Shown in pieces: positions 1 through 25,780 of a stretch of DNA of 53,409 bases (positions are counted from its first letter, which is position 1; every line of letters starts with the position of its first letter). Location of the stretch: contig JAFMJP010000001.1 of the NCBI GenBank assembly GCA_017853375.1, forward strand, positions 1 to 53,409. Reading direction: 5' to 3'. This stretch comes from Actinomycetota bacterium. Its GTDB lineage: Bacteria > Actinomycetota > Acidimicrobiia > Acidimicrobiales > Ilumatobacteraceae. Both the position numbers and the translations under genes were made by a program. The notes under the pieces were generated by a model. That model was not told the DNA's origin and searched no databases. It saw nothing but the letters and a program-made list of their open reading frames with translations.

Positions 1-2279
1 TCGTTGATTGCAGCGACGGTGCTCGCGATCGATTCCGGTGGTACGGGATGACTGATGAGGTAGCCCTGCGCCTTTGCGCAACGCAATTCGCCCAGGGTCT
101 GCAACTGACGGACGCTTTCCACGCCTTCTGCGACCATGTCCAAGCCCATCGATTCGCACATGGCGATGATCGTGCGCACCAGGGCGCGTGCGTCGTCGTT
201 GTCGGCGACTCCGTTGATGAAGGTGCGGTCGATCTTCAGTCGTTGAATGGGGAATTTCTGCAGGAGTGAGAGCGACGAGTATCCGGTGCCGAAATCGTCG
301 ATCGCCACTCGAACGCCGAGCTCGCAGAGTTTGGTGAGTGCAACCAAAGCCTGGTCGGGCTGCGAAATCATCACGCCTTCCGTCACTTCCAGCCAGAGCT
401 GCTTTGCCGGAATGTGGGCGCGAGTGAGGGCTTCGCTCACCACATTGACGAAGTTCGGATCGCTCAACTGCCGTGGCGAGACGTTCACCGCCATGGTTGC
501 GTCGCGCGGACATACGCCGCTTGCGATCCACTCGCTCAGGTGCGTGAGAGCCTCGAGCAGCGCCCAAGATCCAATCGGCACGATGGTGCCGGTTTCTTCG
601 GCGATGGGAATGAACTCGGCAGGGGAGATGGTGGAGCCATCCTCGCGATCCCAGCGCATGAGTGCCTCGAATCCGACGACCTCACCCAAGCCAATGTCGA
701 TGATGGGTTGATGCACCAGCCGCAATTCGCGACGTTCGAGTGCGCGGTAGAGAGCGGTCTCCACCGCCAAGCGTTGTGTGACGCTCTCCAGCATGGATTC
801 ATCGAAGATCGCAACACAGTTGCGTCCCGATTCCTTGGCGCGATACATCGCGGTATCGGCGTGCCGCAGCAAGTCGTCGGCAGAATTGGTGACCGACGGC
901 CGATAGGTGGAGACGCCGATGCTCGCCGAGACGAACACATCCCCCTGCCGGAGGGCCAACGGCTCGTGGAATGACTCGAGGACCCGGTCGGCGAGCACCA
1001 TGGCTTCGCTTGGCCCTGCAGTGTGTGGGTCGAGCACGACGAACTCGTCACCGGCGATGCGCCCGACGACGCACCTCGTGGGGAGCACGACGCGCAAGCG
1101 TTCTGCCACGGCAATGAGGACGTCGTCTCCGGCGGCGTGACCGAGGCTGTCGTTGATGTTCTTGAAACGATCGACGTCGATGAACAGCACGGTTGGTTGG
1201 CGGCCATCGCGCCACGCAGTACGCAGGGCTGTGTCGACGTGCTGCAGCATGAGGGATCGATTGGGTAGGCCGGTCAACGCATCCGTTTGCGCACTTGCCA
1301 CGAGTTTTGCCTGCAACATGGCATTGGCGCGAACCGCGAGCACGACTCGCACCAACACCACTGCCGACAACACGAGCACCGACACGGTTCGCACGACGCG
1401 ATCCCGGGTGTCTTGTGCGTCGGTCAGGGCAAAGATGAAGATTGGTGCGACCAATCCGGAGATCACCACCACGAGGCGTCCGGCGAGTGGTCGGGTGGAT
1501 CGGTAGGCACCCTGTGCGGTGAGAAACCGAATCTCGGGATGCAACAACGTTGCCGCTGCCGCAAAGAGCGCGAGTACGTATGGGGCATTCAGTACTGACT
1601 GCGAGATGTCGGTGAGTCGCGCATCCGACACGGCCCACAGCAAGTCGCCGATGAGCGACGCAATGATCGCACAGGTTGCCAGCCACACCACGGTGTTGTT
1701 TTCCGAGTCGCCGAGCAGCAAGGTCGCTAGCAGGAAGAGCACCACCGCAGAGAGGGAAAACGTGACGCCGCGAAGTGCGACGACCGCGGGTTCGTCGGTG
1801 ATGGTGTCGAAGAGAGGTCGCAACACGGTGATCCACAGCACCAGCCACGTGCCGAGTGAGAGGATCGAGGCATCGGCGAGCACCCCGACCGGCTCCCTTC
1901 CAATGCGACGTTGAACGACCACCAACAAACCGAAGATGAGGGTGGCCTGCACGATGAGAAAGAAGAACTCTCCAACGAAGTGGGCGGTAACGCCGAGCGA
2001 GTCCCGTGAGAGGACTTGTCCGCTGGTGACGGAACACGTGATGACGGCAAATCCGAGGAGAATGCGCCGGTCGAGTCGGTGGCTACGAGCGGAGGCACCC
2101 GCGGAGAGCGCAACGCTGGCGACTGCAAGTGCATAGACGACGTTGCCGAACGTCTCGGACCGAATCACCAGATGCGCAAACGACGTTGCAGCGCCCGTCC
2201 CCAAACAGAGCCACGAAGCGCGCTCGAGCGTGCGTTCTGTCACGCGAACACCACCGAAACCACGGTAGTAAATCCCCAT
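1..2279 (-). CDS. Membrane-anchored GGDEF/EAL cyclic-di-GMP signalling protein (3' end runs off the left edge)
   Basis: Absent from the ORF track because no stop lies in the window. My reverse-strand translation from ATG (2279..2277) gives MGIYYRGFGGV..., then several hydrophobic helices. A GGDEF domain follows (DALTGLPNRS...FIDVDRFKNINDSLGHAAGDDVL...RIAGDEFVVLD; AGDEF variant). An EAL domain follows that (GFEALMRWDREDG...LKIDRTFINGV...AEGVES...AQGYLISHP). The frame stays open to base 1. Confidence 0.85.
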   Translation of the reverse strand, partial: MGIYYRGFGGVRVTERTLERASWLCLGTGAATSFAHLVIRSETFGNVVYALAVASVALSAGASARSHRLDRRILLGFAVITCSVTSGQVLSRDSLGVTAHFVGEFFFLIVQATLIFGLLVVVQRRIGREPVGVLADASILSLGTWLVLWITVLRPLFDTITDEPAVVALRGVTFSLSAVVLFLLATLLLGDSENNTVVWLATCAIIASLIGDLLWAVSDARLTDISQSVLNAPYVLALFAAAATLLHPEIRFLTAQGAYRSTRPLAGRLVVVISGLVAPIFIFALTDAQDTRDRVVRTVSVLVLSAVVLVRVVLAVRANAMLQAKLVASAQTDALTGLPNRSLMLQHVDTALRTAWRDGRQPTVLFIDVDRFKNINDSLGHAAGDDVLIAVAERLRVVLPTRCVVGRIAGDEFVVLDPHTAGPSEAMVLADRVLESFHEPLALRQGDVFVSASIGVSTYRPSVTNSADDLLRHADTAMYRAKESGRNCVAIFDESMLESVTQRLAVETALYRALERRELRLVHQPIIDIGLGEVVGFEALMRWDREDGSTISPAEFIPIAEETGTIVPIGSWALLEALTHLSEWIASGVCPRDATMAVNVSPRQLSDPNFVNVVSEALTRAHIPAKQLWLEVTEGVMISQPDQALVALTKLCELGVRVAIDDFGTGYSSLSLLQKFPIQRLKIDRTFINGVADNDDARALVRTIIAMCESMGLDMVAEGVESVRQLQTLGELRCAKAQGYLISHPVPPESIASTVAAIN

Positions 2280-2315
2280 GTAACAACGCGTGATTCGTTA
2301 GCCTGAAAGCGGGCG

Positions 2316-2330
2316 GAGGTCAGTGACCTC
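2316..2330. promoter_or_regulatory. Perfect 7-1-7 palindrome GAGGTCA-G-TGACCTC in the divergent gap; candidate operator or RNA hairpin
   Basis: Read directly from the sequence. It lies between the GGDEF/EAL start (2279, minus) and the unknown-gene/phoH operon (GTG 2337 or ATG 2358, plus). No cognate regulator is identified. Confidence 0.3.
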
Positions 2331-2357
2331 GGGCGCGTGAGCGCTCATCGGAGACCC

Positions 2358-2966
2358 ATGTTCATTACCCGTCATACGCGCCTTGGCGATGTGGATTTGC
2401 GCGATCGTTTGTGGGAGTTTTATCGGCGTGCCTATGCCAACAATCCGGTGTTGCCGTTCACCGAGTTGGTGAATCGCTCCGAATTCGACGAGGCCTTGCT
2501 CAATTCCACCAACCGTGTATGGGTGGTGTGGGACGACAACCGTCCGATGGTGATGACGTTGATCGCAACCGACATCACGTCGACTCGTTGGTTGAATCCC
2601 GACTATTTTCGAAAACATCACGCGGATCGCATGCGAAAGGGACTGGTGCACTACGTGATGTGGGTCGTGGTGGACTCGGATGTCGAAGTTCGAGGAGCCA
2701 ACATTGCCCTGGCCAAAGAGGCACTCGCGGCAGAAGCACGCGACGGTGCGCTTCTCGTCTTCGATTTGCCCGACACCACACAACCCGGCAACGACGGCGG
2801 TGCAGCAGAGTTGATGTTGCGAATGGGACGAATGGTTGGCGAAGTGGAATTGGTACCGCTTGCTGCTCAACGGTTTTTCGCCCTCGATTTCGCGGCAGTT
2901 GGCGGGGAAGTTGCCAAGCAGAACGGGGCTAACATGAAGGAGGCCATGGGCACCCCCGCGACATGA
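2358..2966 (+). CDS. Hypothetical protein (possible acyl-CoA N-acyltransferase/GNAT-like fold), translationally coupled to phoH
   Basis: ORF 2337..2966 has non-shadow-like composition. The ATG at 2358 is preceded by GGAG 5-6 nt upstream, so I prefer it over GTG 2337. Its stop overlaps the phoH ATG (ATGA at 2963-2966). The strand/helix pattern (VWVVWDDNRPMVMTLIATD ... HYVMWVVVDSDVEVRGANIALAKEALAAEA) is GNAT-like only by eye. Confidence 0.6.
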   Translation: MFITRHTRLGDVDLRDRLWEFYRRAYANNPVLPFTELVNRSEFDEALLNSTNRVWVVWDDNRPMVMTLIATDITSTRWLNPDYFRKHHADRMRKGLVHYVMWVVVDSDVEVRGANIALAKEALAAEARDGALLVFDLPDTTQPGNDGGAAELMLRMGRMVGEVELVPLAAQRFFALDFAAVGGEVAKQNGANMKEAMGTPAT

Positions 2967-3952
2967 CCGTCGCCTCATCTGCCACCACGGTGGTCATTCC
3001 CGGAACCCATTTGATGGCGGCTCTCCTCGGTGAACGTGACGAACTGTTGCGTCATGTTGAACGTGCATTTCCGCATTGCTCCATCGTGGTTCGCGGCAAC
3101 GAAGTGAGTAGCTCTGGTCCGGAGGCCGAGGTCGTGGGTCGGCTGTTCGAAGAACTTGCCGAGCTCCTGCAACGCGGGGAGTCCCTGGATCTCGTGATTC
3201 TTGGACGTGTGATCGACATGGTGAAATCGGACGTGAGTCCGAGCAGCGTGCTCACCTCCGACATCGTGCGAGTGGGCCAGAGCCGACCAGTACGTGCCAA
3301 GACCGCCGGCCAGCGTCGCTACGTGGATGCAATTGCCGAACATGTCATTACCTTCGCACTCGGTCCAGCGGGTACGGGCAAGAGCTGGCTGGCAGTTGCC
3401 ATGGCGGTCCAGGCATTGCACTCCAAGTCGGTGCAAAGAATCATCCTCACTCGACCCGCAGTCGAAGCTGGCGAACGGCTGGGCTTCCTGCCGGGTGACT
3501 TGATGGCCAAGATCGACCCGTACCTGCGCCCGCTCTACGACGCATTGCATGACATGGTTGGTGCCGAGCACGCACAGAAGTATCTCGAGCGCGGGGTGGT
3601 GGAAGTTGCGCCGCTGGCGTTCATGCGCGGACGAACCCTGAACAACTCGTTCATCATTCTCGACGAGGCGCAGAACACCACGCCCGAGCAGATGAAGATG
3701 TTCCTCACGCGTATCGGGTTTGGTTCCAAAGTCGTGGTCACCGGCGACACGACGCAAGTCGACATCCCGGACGGGCGCAGTGGCTTGGCCGGCCTGGAGC
3801 GAGTGTTGACCGGTATCGAGGGTCTCACGTTCGTGCACCTCGAGTATTCCGACGTGGTGCGCCACAAAATCGTCGCAGACATCGTCGCCGCCTACGAGAA
3901 GTCGGGAGAGAAGGCTGCTTCACGAGTTCGGAGCGCCAGGCGCCGTGATTGA
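2963..3952 (+). CDS. phoH: PhoH-like ATPase
   Basis: Walker A GPAGTGKSW, ILTRPAVEAGERLGFLPGDL, KIDPYLRPLYDAL, FIILDEAQN; upstream of ybeY as in most bacteria. Confidence 0.95.
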   Translation: MTVASSATTVVIPGTHLMAALLGERDELLRHVERAFPHCSIVVRGNEVSSSGPEAEVVGRLFEELAELLQRGESLDLVILGRVIDMVKSDVSPSSVLTSDIVRVGQSRPVRAKTAGQRRYVDAIAEHVITFALGPAGTGKSWLAVAMAVQALHSKSVQRIILTRPAVEAGERLGFLPGDLMAKIDPYLRPLYDALHDMVGAEHAQKYLERGVVEVAPLAFMRGRTLNNSFIILDEAQNTTPEQMKMFLTRIGFGSKVVVTGDTTQVDIPDGRSGLAGLERVLTGIEGLTFVHLEYSDVVRHKIVADIVAAYEKSGEKAASRVRSARRRD

Positions 3953-18988: not shown

Positions 18989-19639
18989 TCAGTCGCGGGT
19001 GGACAACACGTTCAGATAATCGTCGTAGGTGACGGCCACACCCTTGGCAGTGAGATCACCGGCACCTCGCGGTACCTGGATCTCCACGTCATCCACCACG
19101 AACAACACCTGACCAATGCCCGGACGACGGGTGAGGGTCAGCACGATTTGCGCGATGGCCAATCGTTGGTCGAGCGGTTCAAGTTCGGAGAGAAATGGTG
19201 CGGTCGACGTCACTCGCGCCACACCCCGGCGGACGTCGATCGTGGCGGTAAGTCCGCGCGGAAGTGCCGATCGTAGGCCGGCGGTTTGTGCGGTTGCATC
19301 CAGACCCTCGAGCAGTGTGTCCAACACCTGGGTCGGGGTTGCCGGACTCACGATCAGGCGTTCGGAACGCACGACGCGGTTGGCGCTCACGAAGTAGAAC
19401 TCCACGGAGTCGTACAGCACTTCGGTGACGGTCGTTGGTGGGGATTCGGTTTCCTGTGGCGTGGTCGTGGTGGTGGCAATGGTGCTGGTGGTGACGGTCA
19501 GCGCATCGGGTATCTCGTTGGCCGGAAGTGCAACGAATCGTCCATCTTCGGGAACCCCGCAACCGCTCAGGATGATGGAGACGATCAGCCCGCACGACGA
19601 CCACCGGCGGGCCGACCAAGTACCGCGGCGCCGAGTCAT
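18989..19639 (-). CDS. GerMN-domain lipoprotein (miniature LpqB-like), coupled to the sensor kinase
   Basis: Lipobox ILSGC, a Thr/Pro-rich linker, then a GerMN-like pattern (VEFYFVS...PTQVLDTLLEGL...GLRSALPRGL...AIAQIVLTLT...VLFVVDD). Its ATG overlaps the kinase stop (ATGA). Confidence 0.7.
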   Translation of the reverse strand: MTRRRGTWSARRWSSCGLIVSIILSGCGVPEDGRFVALPANEIPDALTVTTSTIATTTTTPQETESPPTTVTEVLYDSVEFYFVSANRVVRSERLIVSPATPTQVLDTLLEGLDATAQTAGLRSALPRGLTATIDVRRGVARVTSTAPFLSELEPLDQRLAIAQIVLTLTRRPGIGQVLFVVDDVEIQVPRGAGDLTAKGVAVTYDDYLNVLSTRD

Positions 19640-21099
19640 GACGACGGATCCATGCGGGGAATCGTGACGACGAATCGCGCTCCGCCACTCGGAGACGTAT
19701 CGACGAATGCCCGACCGCCGATTGCGCGCGCATGTTCGGAGACGATGGCGAGACCCAATCCACTGCCGACGCTGTTTCGTGACGCCGTTCCGCGGGCGAA
19801 GCGTTCGAAAATTCGCAGTCGCTCACTGACTCCGATGCCGGGCCCGTTGTCGTCGACGATGAGGAGCAGATGATCGTCGTTGCTGCTCAACAGGATGTCG
19901 GATGCTCCACCTGCGTGATCCCTGGCATTGTCGAGAAGGTTGACGAGTATTCGCTCGACGCGTCGTTTGTCGACGAGGACGACGTCGTCGTTGCCGAGGT
20001 CGGATACGACCAACACTTTTTCGTACCCGTGTCGTGCAGCGATCCGTTCCACCAATGATGCGAGGTGGAGCTCCTCGAGTTGGTCTTGGCCCGCCCTTGC
20101 ATCGAGCCTGCTGAGTTCGAGCAGGTCCAACACGGTGCGATCGAAGCGTCGAACCTGGGCGGCAATGATGTCAATCGCCTGTCGATTTCGATCGGAGAAG
20201 TCGTCGGCACGAGCCTGCAGCACACCGACGGCGGCTCCGAGGGAGGTGATCGGGGATCGGAGTTCGTGGCTGACGTCACTGGCGAAACGCTCTTCACGCT
20301 CGATGCGTTCCTGCACCGCATCGGCCATGCCGTTGAAACTTTCCACGAGGCGTTGAAGGTCGGGGTCGTGTTCGGAGTCCAGGCGGGTTTCCAGTGCGCC
20401 TTCGGCGATGGTCTTTGCTGCAGCGGTCACTCGCCTCAGTGGGAGCAGCACGTTTCCGCTCAACAGAAAACCGATGAGCCCTGCAGCGATGGTGATGCCG
20501 ACGACTGCAGCAATGAGCGTGCTGCGAATGGTGCCAAGCGTGTCCGCCACGTCGCTGATGGGAAACACCTCGAAGTACGTTGCATCGATGGCCGAGATCG
20601 ACACCGCAACTGCTTCGAATGGTCGGCCGTTGAAGTCGACCCGTTGAACTCCGCTGGTTCCGCTGATTGCGTTGCGAACGAACGAAGGCGGCAGATTCGA
20701 TTGTGTGAATCGGAGGGGTGCTTGCGCGTAGAAGAGATCCTCGGAGCCGAGGTGCAACACTGCGTATCCGCCGGTTTCTGTGCGCAGATTGGTGACCACT
20801 TCGCCGGCATCACTTCGCGACGAGCCGACCAGCGAACGAACGAGTTGGGCATTGGCAATGGCTTGCGATCGTGCGGAAGCAGTTGCCTTGTCGAGGAGGT
20901 AATTGCGGGTCGCGGCGAACGTGACGACGCTCAGAATGACCACACCGATGAATGTCGCAAGGGAGAAGTACGCGACGATGCGCGCTCGCAGTCCGGGCCG
21001 CAGCGACTGCAAGCGCAATCGCAGGGGTGGAGTGCGACTCGTTTCGGGCACCCTTCCAGCATGGCGCACCATTGAGCCGGCGGGGTCAAGGGGGAGCAT
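19636..21099 (-). CDS. mtrB: Sensor histidine kinase, MtrB-like
   Basis: Two TM helices flank an extracytoplasmic domain, then HAMP. H-box FASDVSHELRSPITSL, N/G boxes LLDNARDHA, VDDNGPGI, GSGLGLAIV. The start is uncertain: TTG 21177 (track), ATG 21099 (chosen) or ATG 21072. Confidence 0.9.
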   Translation of the reverse strand: MLPLDPAGSMVRHAGRVPETSRTPPLRLRLQSLRPGLRARIVAYFSLATFIGVVILSVVTFAATRNYLLDKATASARSQAIANAQLVRSLVGSSRSDAGEVVTNLRTETGGYAVLHLGSEDLFYAQAPLRFTQSNLPPSFVRNAISGTSGVQRVDFNGRPFEAVAVSISAIDATYFEVFPISDVADTLGTIRSTLIAAVVGITIAAGLIGFLLSGNVLLPLRRVTAAAKTIAEGALETRLDSEHDPDLQRLVESFNGMADAVQERIEREERFASDVSHELRSPITSLGAAVGVLQARADDFSDRNRQAIDIIAAQVRRFDRTVLDLLELSRLDARAGQDQLEELHLASLVERIAARHGYEKVLVVSDLGNDDVVLVDKRRVERILVNLLDNARDHAGGASDILLSSNDDHLLLIVDDNGPGIGVSERLRIFERFARGTASRNSVGSGLGLAIVSEHARAIGGRAFVDTSPSGGARFVVTIPRMDPSS

Positions 21100-21164
21100 G
21101 ACCCTCGCCGGCTCGGGCTCAAGAATGCTCGGTGGAGATGACGGCGGGGTGCTGGAAGTGTGCG

Positions 21165-21179
21165 TTTTGTGTAACAAAA
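21165..21179. promoter_or_regulatory. AT-rich perfect palindrome TTTTGT-gta-ACAAAA in the mtrA/mtrB divergent region; candidate operator/promoter element
   Basis: Read directly, and coordinates cross-checked against both ORF frames. It sits in a locally AT-rich stretch (gttttgtgtaacaaaaggtgtttctttgacag) that contrasts with the GC-rich surroundings. A TTGACA hexamer follows at about 21189-21194. Confidence 0.3.
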
Positions 21180-21206
21180 GGTGTTTCTTTGACAGAATGC
21201 CTCCCC

Positions 21207-21896
21207 ATGGCCACGATTCTCCTGGTTGAGGATGACGCAGGGATACGCGCAGCCCTCAGCCTTGCGCTGGAGGACGAGGGATACCACATGTTGCAGGCAC
21301 CAAACGGGAAAACGGGTTTGGCGATGACGGTTTCCGAACGTCCCGATCTGGTGTTGTTGGATCTCCGCTTGCCGGATGTCTCGGGCTTTGAGGTCTGCCG
21401 AGAAATACGCACGAAGAGCAATCTCCCCATCATCATGGTGACCGCCCAAACGGATACGCATGATTTGGTGGCAGGTTTGGAGGCCGGGGCCGACGACTAC
21501 GTCACGAAACCGGTGAACTCCAAGGAGCTTGCGGCGCGAATTCGTGCCGCACTCCGTCGCATCGTCCGCGAGTCATCCGGCCGTACGCCTGATGTGAGCC
21601 GTTTCGGTGACATTGAGTTGCATCGTGATGCCGGCATCGTGACGAAGGGTGGCGTGGAGATCGCTCTTACGAAGACGGAGCTGCGACTGCTGATCGAGTT
21701 CGTCGATCATCCCAACAGCGTCCTCAGCCGGGACCAGTTGTTGGAGCGTGTATGGGGGTATGAGTACCTCGGTGACAGTCGCTTGGTCGACGCCCACATT
21801 CGGCGTTTGCGTGTGAAGATCGAGGATTCGCCGAATGAGCCCCGGTTCATCACCACGGCTCGAGGTATGGGTTACCGATTCAAGTCCGGCGACTAG
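21207..21896 (+). CDS. mtrA: OmpR-family response regulator, MtrA-like
   Basis: MATILLVEDD..., PDLVLLDLRLPDVSG, IIMVTAQTD, GADDYVTKP, winged helix LVDAHIRRLRVKIE...ITTARGMGYRF. The internal ATG at 21207 gives the canonical N-terminus. Confidence 0.95.
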   Translation: MATILLVEDDAGIRAALSLALEDEGYHMLQAPNGKTGLAMTVSERPDLVLLDLRLPDVSGFEVCREIRTKSNLPIIMVTAQTDTHDLVAGLEAGADDYVTKPVNSKELAARIRAALRRIVRESSGRTPDVSRFGDIELHRDAGIVTKGGVEIALTKTELRLLIEFVDHPNSVLSRDQLLERVWGYEYLGDSRLVDAHIRRLRVKIEDSPNEPRFITTARGMGYRFKSGD

Positions 21897-23763
21897 CGAA
21901 AAACTCCTGCACTTGCGACAACTGGTTGGTTTCCGGCATGTGGGATACGCCGTACAACACCGCGCTCTTGTATCGCTTGGTGGACAGTCGCGGATCGAGG
22001 ATTGCCACGACGCCGTGATCAGTGGCCGTACGGATGAGGCGGCCGGCAGCTTGGGCGAGTGAGGCGGCTGCGATAGGGACGTCCACGGTCATGAATGCGG
22101 AGCTGCCGGCTTCGTCGCGTCGTGCATCGAGCAACGGATCATTCATTGCCGGAAAGGGAACCTTGTCGAGAATCACCAATCGAAGCGCATCTCCCGGCAC
22201 GTCGACACCCTGGAAGAAACCGCGTGTCGCAAAGAGGCAGGAAGCGTGGTCCTGTCGGAAGGCGTCCAGGAGTGCCTTCTTGGGCATGTCGTCTTGTCGG
22301 TACAAGTTGACTCCTTTGCCGAGCTTTCCGTCGAGTGCATCGGCGGTATCGCGGAGAACGCTCCAACTCGTGAAGAGCACCAACGCCGACCCTCCCGACA
22401 AGCTGATGAGCTCCCGGATGCGTGATTGCAACTTGGCGGAGCGTTGCGCATCGTTCGGCACTGGCAGGTCATCTGCGAGGTACAAGAGTGATTGCTTCTC
22501 GTAGTCGAACGGACTCGCCACACGCACGATGTCGTCATCGTCGAATGCCAATCCGAGTCGACGCGGCAAGCCCGGCGGAATCGTCGCGCTGGTCAAGATT
22601 GCCGTGGTGTCGTCCCACAGTTGGCCGAGTACGCGGTCGACTCGCTTCGGGGCGGCGGTAAGACGAGCTGCGCCTCGCACGTCGGTGACGAACACCACCA
22701 TGTTGCTTCCACCAGTCAGCACTTTGTCGAGCGACTCGTTCATGCGCGTGATGGTGGAGACGGCTCGAAGGAGTTCGGGTGTTTCATTGATGGTGGCGCG
22801 AAGTTCGTCGGAAATCAATCCGCATTGCTGCGCAGCATTGCCGATGGTGCCCTCTACGTCGGGTGGTAGCGGCTGGGGGAGTCGTTGACCGACGTAGCGC
22901 TGGAGAACCTCGTCGAGTTCCTTGCCTGTTTTGGCCAGGGCGTTCGGAAGCTTTTGCCTGGCGAGTGCCACACGCGCGGTTTCGGCTGCGGTTGCAATCA
23001 TTCGCCCAGTGAGTGAAACCGAGGCCGTTTCGCTGATGACGTCCTCGAGTTCGTGAACTTCGTCGAATACCACGACGTCATGGTCGGGCAGAAACTCACG
23101 GTCCTGTTCGAGATCGAGGCCGTACAACGTGAAGTTCACCACGATGACGTTGGCGTTCTTGGCCCGTTCGCGTGCGCGCTCGGTGAAGCACGTTTCACCA
23201 AAGGAGCATTTGGCTGCACCCGGACACTCGTCGGATCCAAGACTGACCTTTCGCCAAGCGGAATCGCCGACGGTGAATGGAACGTCGGAAATCTCCCCGG
23301 TTTCCGTTTCGTCGGCCCAGGCAACGAGATCACGTATCTCGCGCACCACGTCGGCGGGGGTGTCGTTGAGTTGCAATTGATCCTGTCCGGTTTCGATCTC
23401 CGAAACTCGTTGACGGCAGAGGTAGTTGTTTCGTCCCTTGAGAATCGCCCAGGAAAACGAGAGATCGGGTCTGTCGGCGCATGCGGCCTCGAGTAAGGGA
23501 AGGTCGACGCTCGCCAGCTGATCCTGGAGCGCCTTGGTGTAGGTGGCAATCACCGCAGTGCGGCCGGCTGCCAGGATGGGCACCAGGTATCCCAACGTCT
23601 TGCCAGTGCCGGTGCCCGCCTGCACCACCAACGTCGTTCCGGTGTCGATGGCATCGGCGACGTGGCGCACCATGTCCGCTTGTCCATCTCGTTGTTCGGC
23701 GTGTGAGAGCCGCCCGATCACCGTGTCGAGAAGCTCGATGGCTGATGCTGCGGCGGGTGTCAT
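21880..23763 (-). CDS. dinG: ATP-dependent DinG/XPD-family helicase
   Basis: Internal ATG (residue 125 of ORF 21880..24135). Walker A VQAGTGTGKTL, VVFDEVHELED box, Cys cluster (NYLCRQRV...ECPGAAKCSFGETCF) typical of the Fe-S domain, C-terminal helicase motifs (FFQGVDVPG, QAAGRLIR). Confidence 0.85.
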   Translation of the reverse strand: MTPAAASAIELLDTVIGRLSHAEQRDGQADMVRHVADAIDTGTTLVVQAGTGTGKTLGYLVPILAAGRTAVIATYTKALQDQLASVDLPLLEAACADRPDLSFSWAILKGRNNYLCRQRVSEIETGQDQLQLNDTPADVVREIRDLVAWADETETGEISDVPFTVGDSAWRKVSLGSDECPGAAKCSFGETCFTERARERAKNANVIVVNFTLYGLDLEQDREFLPDHDVVVFDEVHELEDVISETASVSLTGRMIATAAETARVALARQKLPNALAKTGKELDEVLQRYVGQRLPQPLPPDVEGTIGNAAQQCGLISDELRATINETPELLRAVSTITRMNESLDKVLTGGSNMVVFVTDVRGAARLTAAPKRVDRVLGQLWDDTTAILTSATIPPGLPRRLGLAFDDDDIVRVASPFDYEKQSLLYLADDLPVPNDAQRSAKLQSRIRELISLSGGSALVLFTSWSVLRDTADALDGKLGKGVNLYRQDDMPKKALLDAFRQDHASCLFATRGFFQGVDVPGDALRLVILDKVPFPAMNDPLLDARRDEAGSSAFMTVDVPIAAASLAQAAGRLIRTATDHGVVAILDPRLSTKRYKSAVLYGVSHMPETNQLSQVQEFFASRRT

Positions 23764-24434
23764 GTGGACACGAGAGCGAGGGCGTCGTCGAGTTGGGCGG
23801 CGCCGAAGTCGGGCCACGAACAATCGGTGAAATAGACCCTCGCATTGGCCGCCTGCCACAGCAAGAAATTGGAGACCCTGGATTCGCCCGATGTGCGAAC
23901 GAGCAAATCCACCGGCGGAAGTGTCGGGTCGTAGAGTTCGGCGTTGATCGCAGAAATCGACGTGTGGTGGGCTCGAGTCACTGCTCGTACGATCTCGGCC
24001 CGACTCCCGTAGTCGAACGCGACGGTCAACACCATTCCTGTGTTGTGTTTCGTGTCGTCGATGGCTTGGACGATGGCCCGTTGCACCGACTTGGGGGTTC
24101 GTGCGTACGGCTCGTCGAAAGGGCGACCAATCCAATTCACGCGAACGTTGTTGGCGTTGAGTTCATCGATTCGCCCAAAGAGCTTGCGGTGCAATCCCAG
24201 AATGTGACGAATCTCCGAAGGTGGGCGAACCCAATTTTCGGTGCTGAAACCAAAAACGGTCAGCCATCCGACGTTCCGTTGAGCGGCGGCACGTACCACT
24301 CCGGCAAGTGCCTCCTCGCCGGCGGTGTGTCCCGCGGTACGCGGGAGCCCCCGACGTTTGGCCCAACGACCATTGCCGTCCATGATGCAGGCAACGTGCA
24401 GACGGCGGGACGACGCTCTGGCGGGACTGGTCAT
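23760..24434 (-). CDS. uppS: Undecaprenyl-diphosphate synthase (cis-prenyltransferase), C-terminally short form
   Basis: Internal ATG (residue 115 of ORF 23760..24776). IMDGNGRWA, FSTENWVRP and RTSGESRVSNFLLWQ are present. It ends ...WPDFGAAQLDDALALVST without the usual R-x-R-R-F-G tail. Its stop overlaps the dinG ATG (ATGA). Confidence 0.9.
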   Translation of the reverse strand: MTSPARASSRRLHVACIMDGNGRWAKRRGLPRTAGHTAGEEALAGVVRAAAQRNVGWLTVFGFSTENWVRPPSEIRHILGLHRKLFGRIDELNANNVRVNWIGRPFDEPYARTPKSVQRAIVQAIDDTKHNTGMVLTVAFDYGSRAEIVRAVTRAHHTSISAINAELYDPTLPPVDLLVRTSGESRVSNFLLWQAANARVYFTDCSWPDFGAAQLDDALALVST

Positions 24435-24476
24435 GGTGTGCCGTATGAAACTAGTTCCTAGTGCGAGGATGTAGCA

Positions 24477-25052
24477 GTGGTTTCTGAAGCATCGTTGTCC
24501 CACCTGCTGCTCTGTGCGGGTTCGGTGACTGATTGGAAGAACACGTCGGCCGAGCAATGGCGTACGCGGCTCGATCTCGTAGCGCGCGCAGCACAAGGAG
24601 GGGGAGCGGAGTGGGCCACCATCGTCCCTGTAATGCCCGGACACTCGCAGGATGTCGAAGCAGTACGTGCTCTGCTGCAGGACGCTTGTGGTGGGGTGCG
24701 ATATGCGCACCGCATGGTGATGCTCAGTGAAGGTGGTGTGACGGTCATCGTGGATCCCATCGCAGATGGCAAGCAACGTATTGCCGATGCGGCGAGCCGA
24801 ATCGCGTCATCCGGTGAACTCACAGAAGAGCGTTTGTCGGCTGCCATCACTGCGCCGGCCCCGAACGAACCCGACCTGGTGATCGTGTTGGGGGATGCCA
24901 CCACCATGCCTTCGGCGCTGGTGTGGGAGCTTGCGTACGCAGAGCTCGTGTTCTTGGACGTTCCGTGGTCGGGGCTCGACGCAGAACACGTGGAGATGGC
25001 GATCAACGACTACACGCGACGCGATCGCCGGTTTGGTGGCGTGGATTCCTGA
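24477..25052 (+). CDS. Degenerate UppS-like (cis-prenyltransferase fold) protein retaining the C-terminal RRFGG tail; probably non-catalytic
   Basis: 191 aa, GTG start. It aligns by eye with UppS end to end (HLLLCAGSVTDWKN; PDLVIVLGDATTMPSALVWELAYAELVFLDVPWSGL...DYTRRDRRFGG), but the DGNGRW, ENW and RTxGExRxSNF catalytic blocks are substituted. Its stop overlaps the recO ATG (TGATG). Confidence 0.7.
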   Translation: MVSEASLSHLLLCAGSVTDWKNTSAEQWRTRLDLVARAAQGGGAEWATIVPVMPGHSQDVEAVRALLQDACGGVRYAHRMVMLSEGGVTVIVDPIADGKQRIADAASRIASSGELTEERLSAAITAPAPNEPDLVIVLGDATTMPSALVWELAYAELVFLDVPWSGLDAEHVEMAINDYTRRDRRFGGVDS

Positions 25053-25780
25053 TGCCGGTGTATCGCGACGTCGGTGTCGTATTGCGTACGCACAAACTCG
25101 GTGAATCCGACAGGATCATCACGTTGATCACCCAGGATTCGGGCAGGGTACGAGCCGTTGCGAAAGGGATTCGAAAGACCACCTCCAAGTTCGGCTCACG
25201 ACTCGAACCAATGAGTCATGTGCAAGTGCAGTTGTATCGGGGGCGGGAACTCGACATCGTCAATCAAGTTGAGTTGGTTGAGGTGGCATCGTCGACTCGG
25301 GCACATCTCGAAGCCACCACCGACGGATTGGCGATGTGCGAGGTCGTGGAACAGCTTTCACACGACCGATCTCCCACCCCGCACTTGTATCGGATGTTGG
25401 TTGGGGCATTGCGTCAGCTCAACACTTCGTATTCCGCATTGCTGTTGCCTGCACTGCAACTTCGGCTCTTGGAGGAAGAGGGTGTTGGGCCGCGCGTGGA
25501 TCGTTGCGTCGTGTGTGACGCTGCCGATGGTCTCGTGGCCATCGACGTACAGGCAGGCGGTGTGCAATGTCGCCAGCATCGGCGCGGAATGTCGATGTCG
25601 CCGCAGGCTCTCTCGATTCTGCAGGATGTGCTCAATGGCCGAATCGCGTCGGTGTTGCATCGCCAGGATGTGCCCAAGGACGTGGTGCGAGAGGTGGTGT
25701 CGTACGGACGAAGTGCCATGGAGCACCATCTCGAACGTCGCATCCGTTCGTCATCGTTGTTCGAGGCACCGCGTACGTAA
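25052..25780 (+). CDS. recO: DNA repair protein RecO
   Basis: MPVYRDVGVVLRTHKLGESDRIITLITQDSGRVRAVAKGIRKTTSKFGSRLEP... and a Cys-containing zinc region (CVVCD...QCRQH). Confidence 0.9.
   Translation: MPVYRDVGVVLRTHKLGESDRIITLITQDSGRVRAVAKGIRKTTSKFGSRLEPMSHVQVQLYRGRELDIVNQVELVEVASSTRAHLEATTDGLAMCEVVEQLSHDRSPTPHLYRMLVGALRQLNTSYSALLLPALQLRLLEEEGVGPRVDRCVVCDAADGLVAIDVQAGGVQCRQHRRGMSMSPQALSILQDVLNGRIASVLHRQDVPKDVVREVVSYGRSAMEHHLERRIRSSSLFEAPRT

Follow-up and report, generated by a model that had tools for sequence, protein, structure and literature searches.

Can a bacterial undecaprenyl diphosphate synthase (UppS) be divided between two proteins, one carrying the active site and the other the C-terminal tail? 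The question is raised by two divergent genes in a 53,409-nucleotide stretch of contig JAFMJP010000001.1 (hereafter the window) from an Actinomycetota bacterium of the family Ilumatobacteraceae. One gene encodes a UppS of 224 amino acids (aa) that has no C-terminal RXG tail, and the other a degenerate 191-aa paralogue, here called the partner, that has kept it. Bacteria cannot live without UppS, which is a validated antibiotic target and the textbook homodimeric cis-prenyltransferase. An earlier note on this DNA had proposed that the two proteins divide the labour of one enzyme as a heteromer. This proposal is supported, though not proven, by the profile matches, the fold, the adjacency of the genes, the tails and the selection acting on both genes, and we consider it likely, on the strength of the sequences, that the pair is an obligate heterodimeric cis-prenyltransferase of Ilumatobacteraceae-type Acidimicrobiia.

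The catalytic protein and its partner

The two genes and the motifs on which the argument turns are the following (FPP, farnesyl diphosphate; IPP, isopentenyl diphosphate).

23760..24434, minus strand: predicted catalytic subunit, a 224-aa cis-prenyltransferase of the UppS family, complete except for the C-terminal RXG tail.
24363..24380, minus strand: DGNGRW codons (D19, R23), the catalytic Asp and FPP-diphosphate-binding loop, intact and invariant in 22 orthologues.
23865..23897, minus strand: RTSGESRVSNF (R180, R186, S188), the IPP-binding block, intact; RTSGE.R.SN is invariant in 22 orthologues.
23838..23840, minus strand: codon AGG for R199, the position of E. coli Glu213; AYAEL reads AANARV and the Glu is lost.
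24477..25052, plus strand: partner, a predicted accessory pseudo-enzyme subunit of cis-prenyltransferase fold, 191 aa with a GTG start.
24513..24536, plus strand: CAGSVTDW, the degenerate counterpart of MDGNGRW, with G15 for the catalytic Asp (D26) and D19 for the diphosphate-binding Arg (R30).
24942..24944, plus strand: codon GAG for E156, the position of E. coli Glu213, kept (WELAYAELVF) and invariant in the family.
25017..25049, plus strand: C-terminal tail RRDRRFGGVDS, with RXG as R185-F186-G187 (25029-25037).

Both open reading frames (ORFs) lie where the earlier note had placed them, with start codons 42 bp apart and diverging in the ORF list and in the raw sequence alike, and every statement that it had made about the sequence was verified. 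The 224-aa protein matches the Prenyltransf profile PF01255 with E 9e-64, over profile positions 1-208 of 219 only, and the NCBIfam model TIGR00055 (uppS), whose cut-off is 109.55 bits, with 196 bits over positions 4-217 of 228. It contains the blocks IMDGNGRWA, FSTENWVRP and RTSGESRVSNFLLWQ and ends in ...WPDFGAAQLDDALALVST. Alignment to solved structures places D19, R23, R32, H36 and S64 at E. coli D26, R30, R39, H43 and S71, and N67, R70, R180, R186 and S188 at N74, R77, R194, R200 and S202; none of these ten catalytic and substrate-binding residues varies among 22 orthologues. The best solved relative is the T. fusca dodecaprenyl-PP synthase (7cpn, E 6e-53), and human DHDDS is matched with E 2e-26.

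The C-terminal RXG that a canonical homodimeric UppS carries on its own chain is absent from this protein. As the earlier note had read it, the protein stops just before this motif: in the alignment to solved UppS its last residue, T224, falls on E. coli N238, four residues short of R242-F243-G244. The stop codon TGA (23760-23762) shares an ATGA with the start codon (23761-23763) of a dinG-like helicase gene. An AlphaFold2 model (predicted local distance difference test, pLDDT, 80.5) shows the full fold with a last helix, 212-223, that reaches the C-terminus, so that no tail extends beyond the helix.

The partner matches PF01255 with E 1.3e-12, over profile positions 124-219 only, so both proteins belong to the family in which the earlier note had put them. 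Its colinearity with UppS, stated there from the sequence alone, was recovered by phmmer, which aligns partner residues 111-190 with E. coli UPPS 168-247 without a gap (partner n = E. coli n+57). In this alignment V137, T143 and P145 stand for the IPP-binding R194, R200 and S202, and W150, Y154, E156, R185, F186 and G187 are kept at the positions of W207, Y211, E213, R242, F243 and G244. Towards the N-terminus the partner reads HLLLCAGSVTDW at the place of UppS HVAIIMDGNGRW, and P51 replaces F70. With the catalytic Asp and the IPP- and FPP-binding residues replaced, the partner is predicted not to be an active cis-prenyltransferase.

The structural model agrees with this assignment. Built from a 44-sequence alignment, the AlphaFold2 model of the partner reaches pLDDT 83 and a predicted template modelling score (pTM) of 0.82, and a Foldseek search of the PDB with it returned only cis-prenyltransferases, with template modelling scores on the partner query of 0.54-0.66 to bacterial UPPS and decaprenyl synthases and of 0.55-0.59 to the NgBR chains of the human complex (6z1n_B, 6w2l_B, 7pax_B and others). 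The profile-profile comparison of the two families by hhalign gave 92% probability, with partner 30-177 aligned onto catalytic 41-220 and a deletion of about 25 residues in the partner over the catalytic betaC-alpha4 region. No N-terminal transmembrane extension was seen on the partner, judged from the model only; the first strand, beta-A, already begins at residue 9 of 191, which leaves no space for a membrane segment. In the monomer model the final ten residues are disordered, which fits a tail that depends on a partner.

The losses in the two proteins are reciprocal, each lacking what the other keeps. This extends beyond the RXG tail to the Glu213 position, where the catalytic orthologues carry R, K, A or Y and never E. 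To judge from the sequences, the two chains show the division that defines the known heteromers, an RXG-less catalytic chain with an apparently inactive RXG-bearing one.

In every cis-prenyltransferase examined, the tail reaches over to the other subunit of the dimer and seals that subunit's active site above Mg2+ and IPP (PMC7573591, PMC8131916); the Arg of RXG coordinates Mg2+ through a water molecule, and the backbone of the Gly touches the acceptor beta-phosphate (PMC8131916). The 224-aa protein ends right after helix alpha-7 and cannot supply such a tail. We infer that the two proteins form a 1:1 heterodimer on the usual cis-prenyltransferase interface and that activity depends on the partner. 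The single active site of the heterodimer would lie in the 224-aa chain, with the catalytic Asp, the FPP- and IPP-binding arginines and the Ser; the 191-aa paralogue, catalytically dead, would keep the dimerisation half, the Glu213-equivalent and the RRFGG tail, and would insert R185-F186-G187 in trans into the active site of the catalytic subunit.

A separate observation concerns the inactive half of the partner. Residues 13-51 (24513-24629) include the invariant G15, W20, W28, W46 and P51 and a mostly conserved C13. In the 44-sequence family alignment C13 and G15 are both invariant; in a distant branch C13 is replaced by Ala, Val or Ser, G15 is still invariant in 22 pairs, and W20 is invariant in both sets. 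These residues are not explained by a tail-donor model and could form a structural core or a ligand-binding or regulatory pocket.

Distribution and conservation of the pair

If the two proteins depend on each other, they should be found together. Loci were collected from the genome collection (L001), from exact-protein look-ups (L002-L008 and L091-L093) and from a metagenome scan with the family alignment (L011-L034), and the co-occurrence of the genes was measured at the level of the locus. A complete tail-less catalytic gene lies head-to-head with a complete partner in 25 of the 25 non-redundant loci in which both genes are readable (22 pairs, this window included, and L091-L093). The identity of the partner to the window protein ranges across them from 80% down to 38%, and the adjacency that the earlier note had asked about holds throughout. 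Three more loci agree with the pair but are incomplete: L025 and L034 run off the contig, and L014 has a broken catalytic ORF. In every locus that has downstream DNA, recO starts at the stop of the partner.

The absence of the tail is a property of the whole clade. RXG was found in none of the 120 closest catalytic orthologues (76-99% identical), all of which end 1-10 residues past alpha-7 in variable sequence. An exhaustive search of 1.8 billion cluster representatives indicates that the tail-less clade is essentially one 50%-identity cluster (P0241 and fragments); beyond it, from 51% identity downwards, nearly all relatives are ordinary tail-bearing UppS. The ordinary UppS genes from the metagenome scan (L035-L090) all have tails of the RRFGG or RRYGG type. 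Relatives of the partner number in the hundreds, in hundreds of 90%-identity clusters of proteins of about 190-210 aa from metagenomes and metagenome-assembled genomes (MAGs). Their source names include Ilumatobacteraceae, Acidimicrobiia, 'Acidimicrobiaceae' and Actinomycetota, with no cultured organism among them. The tail, ...RRFGG(V/I/L)D(S/A/P), is present in 240 of 240 partner relatives among the matches listed. The pair also exposes an annotation problem: MAG records carry the partner either as a 'hypothetical protein' or as an 'undecaprenyl diphosphate synthase family protein'.

We also detected two more distant proteins, P0247 (L009, 4248-4994) and P0334 (L010, 1574-2236), 50% and 44% identical to the catalytic protein, that have neither an RXG tail nor AYAE (CADSYF and AARSRF in its place). 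The P0247 gene comes directly after one for a trans-polyprenyl synthase. Within the short flanks available (the P0334 contig is 2.7 kb) neither has a visible partner gene, and they may represent independent tail-less lineages.

Conservation statistics were calculated over the 22 non-redundant true pairs of catalytic and partner genes. The catalytic proteins share a mean pairwise identity of 71% (minimum 61%), with 92 of 224 residues invariant, and the partners 48% (minimum 35%); the distances of the two correlate with r = 0.89, which mostly reflects their shared phylogeny. In the two closest comparisons (dS about 1.1-1.8), the catalytic gene had a dN/dS of 0.07-0.09 and the partner one of 0.10-0.11, and the value of about 0.1 marks the partner as a functional gene under purifying selection. 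Conservation along the partner is uneven: the mean frequency of the top residue is 0.96 in the tail (181-191), the most conserved segment of the protein, 0.80 from betaE to betaF (132-160) and 0.52 in the N-terminal half. In the human structure, the dimer interface is built from alpha5, alpha6 and the betaE-betaF linker (PMC7573591). Conserving an invariant tail that binds substrate makes no obvious sense in a protein that has no active site of its own, unless that tail acts in trans.

These data bear on the simplest objection, that the partner is an annotation artefact or a gene copy in decay, and that the UppS has been cut short by an assembly or frameshift error. It is true that only the C-terminal half of the partner reaches significance in Pfam, and one catalytic ORF is broken. 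Yet the partner ORF remains intact down to 35% pairwise identity, with a dN/dS of about 0.1 and a confidently modelled fold; the catalytic protein is truncated at the identical position in 120 of 120 orthologues, and its stop overlaps the start of the next gene. The two genes lie on opposite strands and so are not one gene split by a frameshift. We regard this explanation as scarcely credible, and the pseudogene, frameshift and artefact readings are ruled out by dN/dS, clade-wide conservation and the opposite-strand arrangement. The broken ORF is that of L014 (439-1038), which matches residues 13-151 only and then runs into unrelated sequence; it probably reflects a frameshift or an assembly error and not a natural loss.

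Three points weigh against an obligate heterodimer that makes the carrier lipid of the cell. M. mazei MM_0014, an intact catalytic core without RXG, is active as a homodimer, although it keeps a TLGG tail (PMC8131916); the DHDDS homodimer retains weak activity, about 400-fold lower (PMC7573591); and the pair could be a second, specialised system beside a complete UppS elsewhere in the genome. The first of these would favour a 224-aa enzyme that works alone as an RXG-less homodimer, with a partner whose role is unrelated (for example as a regulator, a scaffold or a lipid-binding protein) and may be connected with recO. The partner is indeed translationally coupled to recO and not to the catalytic gene, and its N-terminal half has the invariant residues of its own described above. 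However, it is most conserved in the tail that binds substrate and Mg2+ and in the segment of the dimer interface, and in each of the genomes examined one copy has lost the tail and the Glu213-equivalent while the other has retained them. MM_0014 itself, which has a relaxed acceptor specificity, covers its neighbour's cavity with its C-terminal extension (PMC8131916). The catalytic protein here, unlike MM_0014, has no extension able to reach a neighbouring active site and is always accompanied by a tail-bearing paralogue. A lone homodimer is thus improbable, and the obligate heterodimer remains the reading that we prefer.

The recO-linked locus and the probable product

What such a heterodimer would make must be judged from its surroundings and its conservation. 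The features that flank and separate the two genes are these.

21880..23763, minus strand: DinG-like helicase (Helicase_C_2, DEAD and DEAD_2 matches), conserved in position.
24435..24476: divergent intergenic region of 42 bp common to both genes, with GAGGA and the palindrome ACTAGTTCCTAGT.
25052..25780, plus strand: recO (RecO_N and RecO_C matches), in a conserved neighbourhood.

The overlap of the partner with recO that the earlier note had described was found as TGATG, formed by the partner stop and the recO ATG, and Pfam confirms the identity of recO. The wider order is also conserved, with era, the helicase and the catalytic gene on one side and the partner, recO, glyS and trpC-F-B-A on the other. 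In the ordinary actinobacterial loci L040, L057 and L058, recO is followed by uppS on the same strand. Like the uppS of other Actinobacteria, the catalytic gene adjoins recO in the era-recO region, but it does not occupy the downstream slot: in the split clade glyS directly follows recO, no uppS is present there, and both uppS-derived genes lie upstream of recO. This difference in order indicates that the split was accompanied by a local rearrangement, possibly an inverted duplication, and adjacency to recO is an inherited trait of actinobacterial uppS loci.

The product is most likely a polyprenyl diphosphate of the C50-C55 class, a carrier of cell-envelope glycans. The position of the pair beside recO and the very high conservation of the catalytic gene both point to this carrier-lipid role. 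More tentatively, and at somewhat less than an even chance, we suggest that in Ilumatobacteraceae and relatives (uncultured freshwater and marine Acidimicrobiia) the heterodimer has replaced homodimeric UppS as the only carrier-lipid synthase and has evolved independently.

The explanation that competes here accepts a true heteromer and denies that it is the housekeeping enzyme: an ordinary full-length UppS would be encoded elsewhere, and the split enzyme would supply a specialised glycoconjugate with a different product, for example a longer polyprenyl phosphate or one primed with Z,E-FPP, as in the mycobacterial Rv2361c. The closest solved relative, the T. fusca dodecaprenyl-PP synthase, is specific for (2Z,6E)-FPP, which speaks for this explanation, as does the fact that many Actinobacteria have two cis-prenyltransferases (Rv1086 and Rv2361c in M. 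tuberculosis). Eukaryotic heteromers also tend toward long chains (PMC7573591), but those of archaea make C45-C55 carrier lipids, so that a heteromer need not mean a long chain. The locus itself speaks for the housekeeping role: the pair adjoins recO in the era-recO region, which is the usual neighbourhood of uppS (L040, L057, L058), and the place directly after recO is taken in the split clade by glyS and not by uppS. The catalytic gene is strongly constrained (dN/dS 0.07; 92 of 224 residues invariant), and a blastp search found no other UppS-like ORF besides the pair within the 53-kb window. A specialised system is on balance unlikely, both as regards a second UppS elsewhere and as regards a different product, although clearly less so than a lone homodimer.

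The shared intergenic region has features of its own. GAGGA sits 7 nt upstream of the GTG start of the partner, and at 24448-24476 the palindrome ACTAGTTCCTAGT is followed by GCGAGGATG, in the same place in L001, L006, L011, L012 and L013. In both L006 and L015 the two arms of the palindrome have changed in a matching way (CTAC..GTAG in place of CTAG..CTAG), with the symmetry preserved, and more distant loci have a CCCTAGTGA(G/C) or GCGACAATAGAG motif in place of the palindrome. The palindrome could be an operator common to both divergent genes or their -10 region; a scan of the intergenic region for the sigma-70 consensus gave no match, a result that says little in Actinobacteria.

In some lineages the conserved order is interrupted by an insertion of Germane, histidine-kinase and response-regulator genes. 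In the window, 19636-21896 holds a minus-strand histidine kinase (HAMP/HisKA/HATPase) and a Germane-domain protein beside a divergent OmpR-type response regulator. The same block lies between era and the helicase in L002, L005 and L006 (about 350-3350) and is absent from L091-L093; it looks like an insertion into the era-recO region.

Origin and relation to known heteromers

The partner is much nearer to bacterial UPPS than to the accessory subunit of eukaryotes. The profile of the partner family matches E. coli UPPS with E 2.7e-17, NUS1 with 2e-4 and DHDDS with 0.07. In blastp the partner matches ordinary actinobacterial UppS with E 5e-19 to 2e-17 (about 40% identity over the last 100 residues, in three local matches) and the neighbouring catalytic protein with E 0.002 only. 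The partner is therefore not an orthologue of NgBR/Nus1, and its origin is independent. By their sequences, both genes derive from bacterial UppS, and the likeness to DHDDS/NgBR is a functional convergence. Most likely a bacterial uppS was duplicated and the copies then underwent complementary loss, apart from the eukaryotic and archaeal heteromers.

Homodimeric UppS (E. coli UPPS, 1jp3; T. fusca, 7cpn; M. tuberculosis Rv2361c, 2vg2) is thus the apparent source family of both proteins. The catalytic subunit, with its full active site, is 40-50% identical to these enzymes, the C-terminal 100 residues of the partner are about 40% identical to them, and both kinds of locus are linked to recO. In the homodimers every chain has an active site and a tail, whereas in the pair the two are on different chains, so that a homodimer of either protein would be incomplete.

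Should the pair act as proposed, a bacterial heteromer would break the rule that the characterised bacterial enzymes are homomeric, and a bacterial lineage would have arrived at the two-piece solution on its own, apart from the heteromers of eukaryotes and archaea. The pair would offer a clean natural case in which complementary degeneration has yielded an obligate pseudo-enzyme partner, and would identify Glu213 plus RXG as a half-site that is a separable, trans-acting module. Heteromerisation would then be bound neither to long-chain products nor to membrane anchoring. Mutations in the DHDDS/NgBR architecture cause human glycosylation disorders, and for that complex the pair would be a small, soluble, anchor-free model, with about 200 residues per subunit and no transmembrane or tetramerisation domain.

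Heteromers of an RXG-less catalytic subunit and an inactive paralogue that supplies RXG are known in eukaryotes, and the same division is seen in human DHDDS/NgBR, in yeast Rer2 or Srt1 with Nus1 and in Paramecium CPT1/POC1. The NgBR tail reaches across the interface into the DHDDS active site, a transverse contact that homodimeric enzymes share (PMC7573591), and the accessory subunit diverges far more rapidly than its catalytic counterpart (PMC12998183), as it does here. The model of the partner superposes on NgBR chains. The contrast between AYAEL and AANARV to which the earlier note had drawn attention also has a human parallel: in the PDB sequences the Glu213 position is occupied by Cys in DHDDS (LLWQTSHSCLVF) and is still Glu in NgBR (LPWHIRLTEIVS), whose C-terminus is ...CEQRLGK. 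The fate of the Glu213-equivalent is therefore reciprocal in both systems, a resemblance that is independent of RXG. Several features set the bacterial pair apart. Unlike NgBR/Nus1 (in animals, fungi and plants), the partner has no N-terminal membrane domain; unlike DHDDS, the catalytic subunit stops after alpha-7 and has no C-terminal helix-turn-helix tetramerisation domain; unlike those of the eukaryotic heteromers, the genes are adjacent and divergent; and the bacterial host presumably needs a peptidoglycan carrier and not dolichol.

The earlier note had counted one archaeal example of this design and no bacterial one. The archaeal count was too low, at least three having been characterised (M. 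acetivorans MA3723/MA4402, M. mazei MM_1083/MM_0618 and A. fulgidus Af1219/Af0707). The bacterial part of that count stands: a 2026 review describes all characterised bacterial enzymes as homomeric (PMC13586052), and we found no report of a heteromeric bacterial cis-prenyltransferase in the full-text literature, a coverage that leaves out most subscription journals. Like the enzyme proposed here, the archaeal heteromers are prokaryotic, soluble and two-subunit, with RXG from a degenerate paralogue; they make a C45-C55 glycosyl carrier lipid. They belong to another domain of life and, as judged by similarity, probably go back to a separate duplication. The architecture is already known from these systems; what would be new is to find it in Bacteria, independently evolved, in a minimal soluble form and encoded by adjacent divergent genes.

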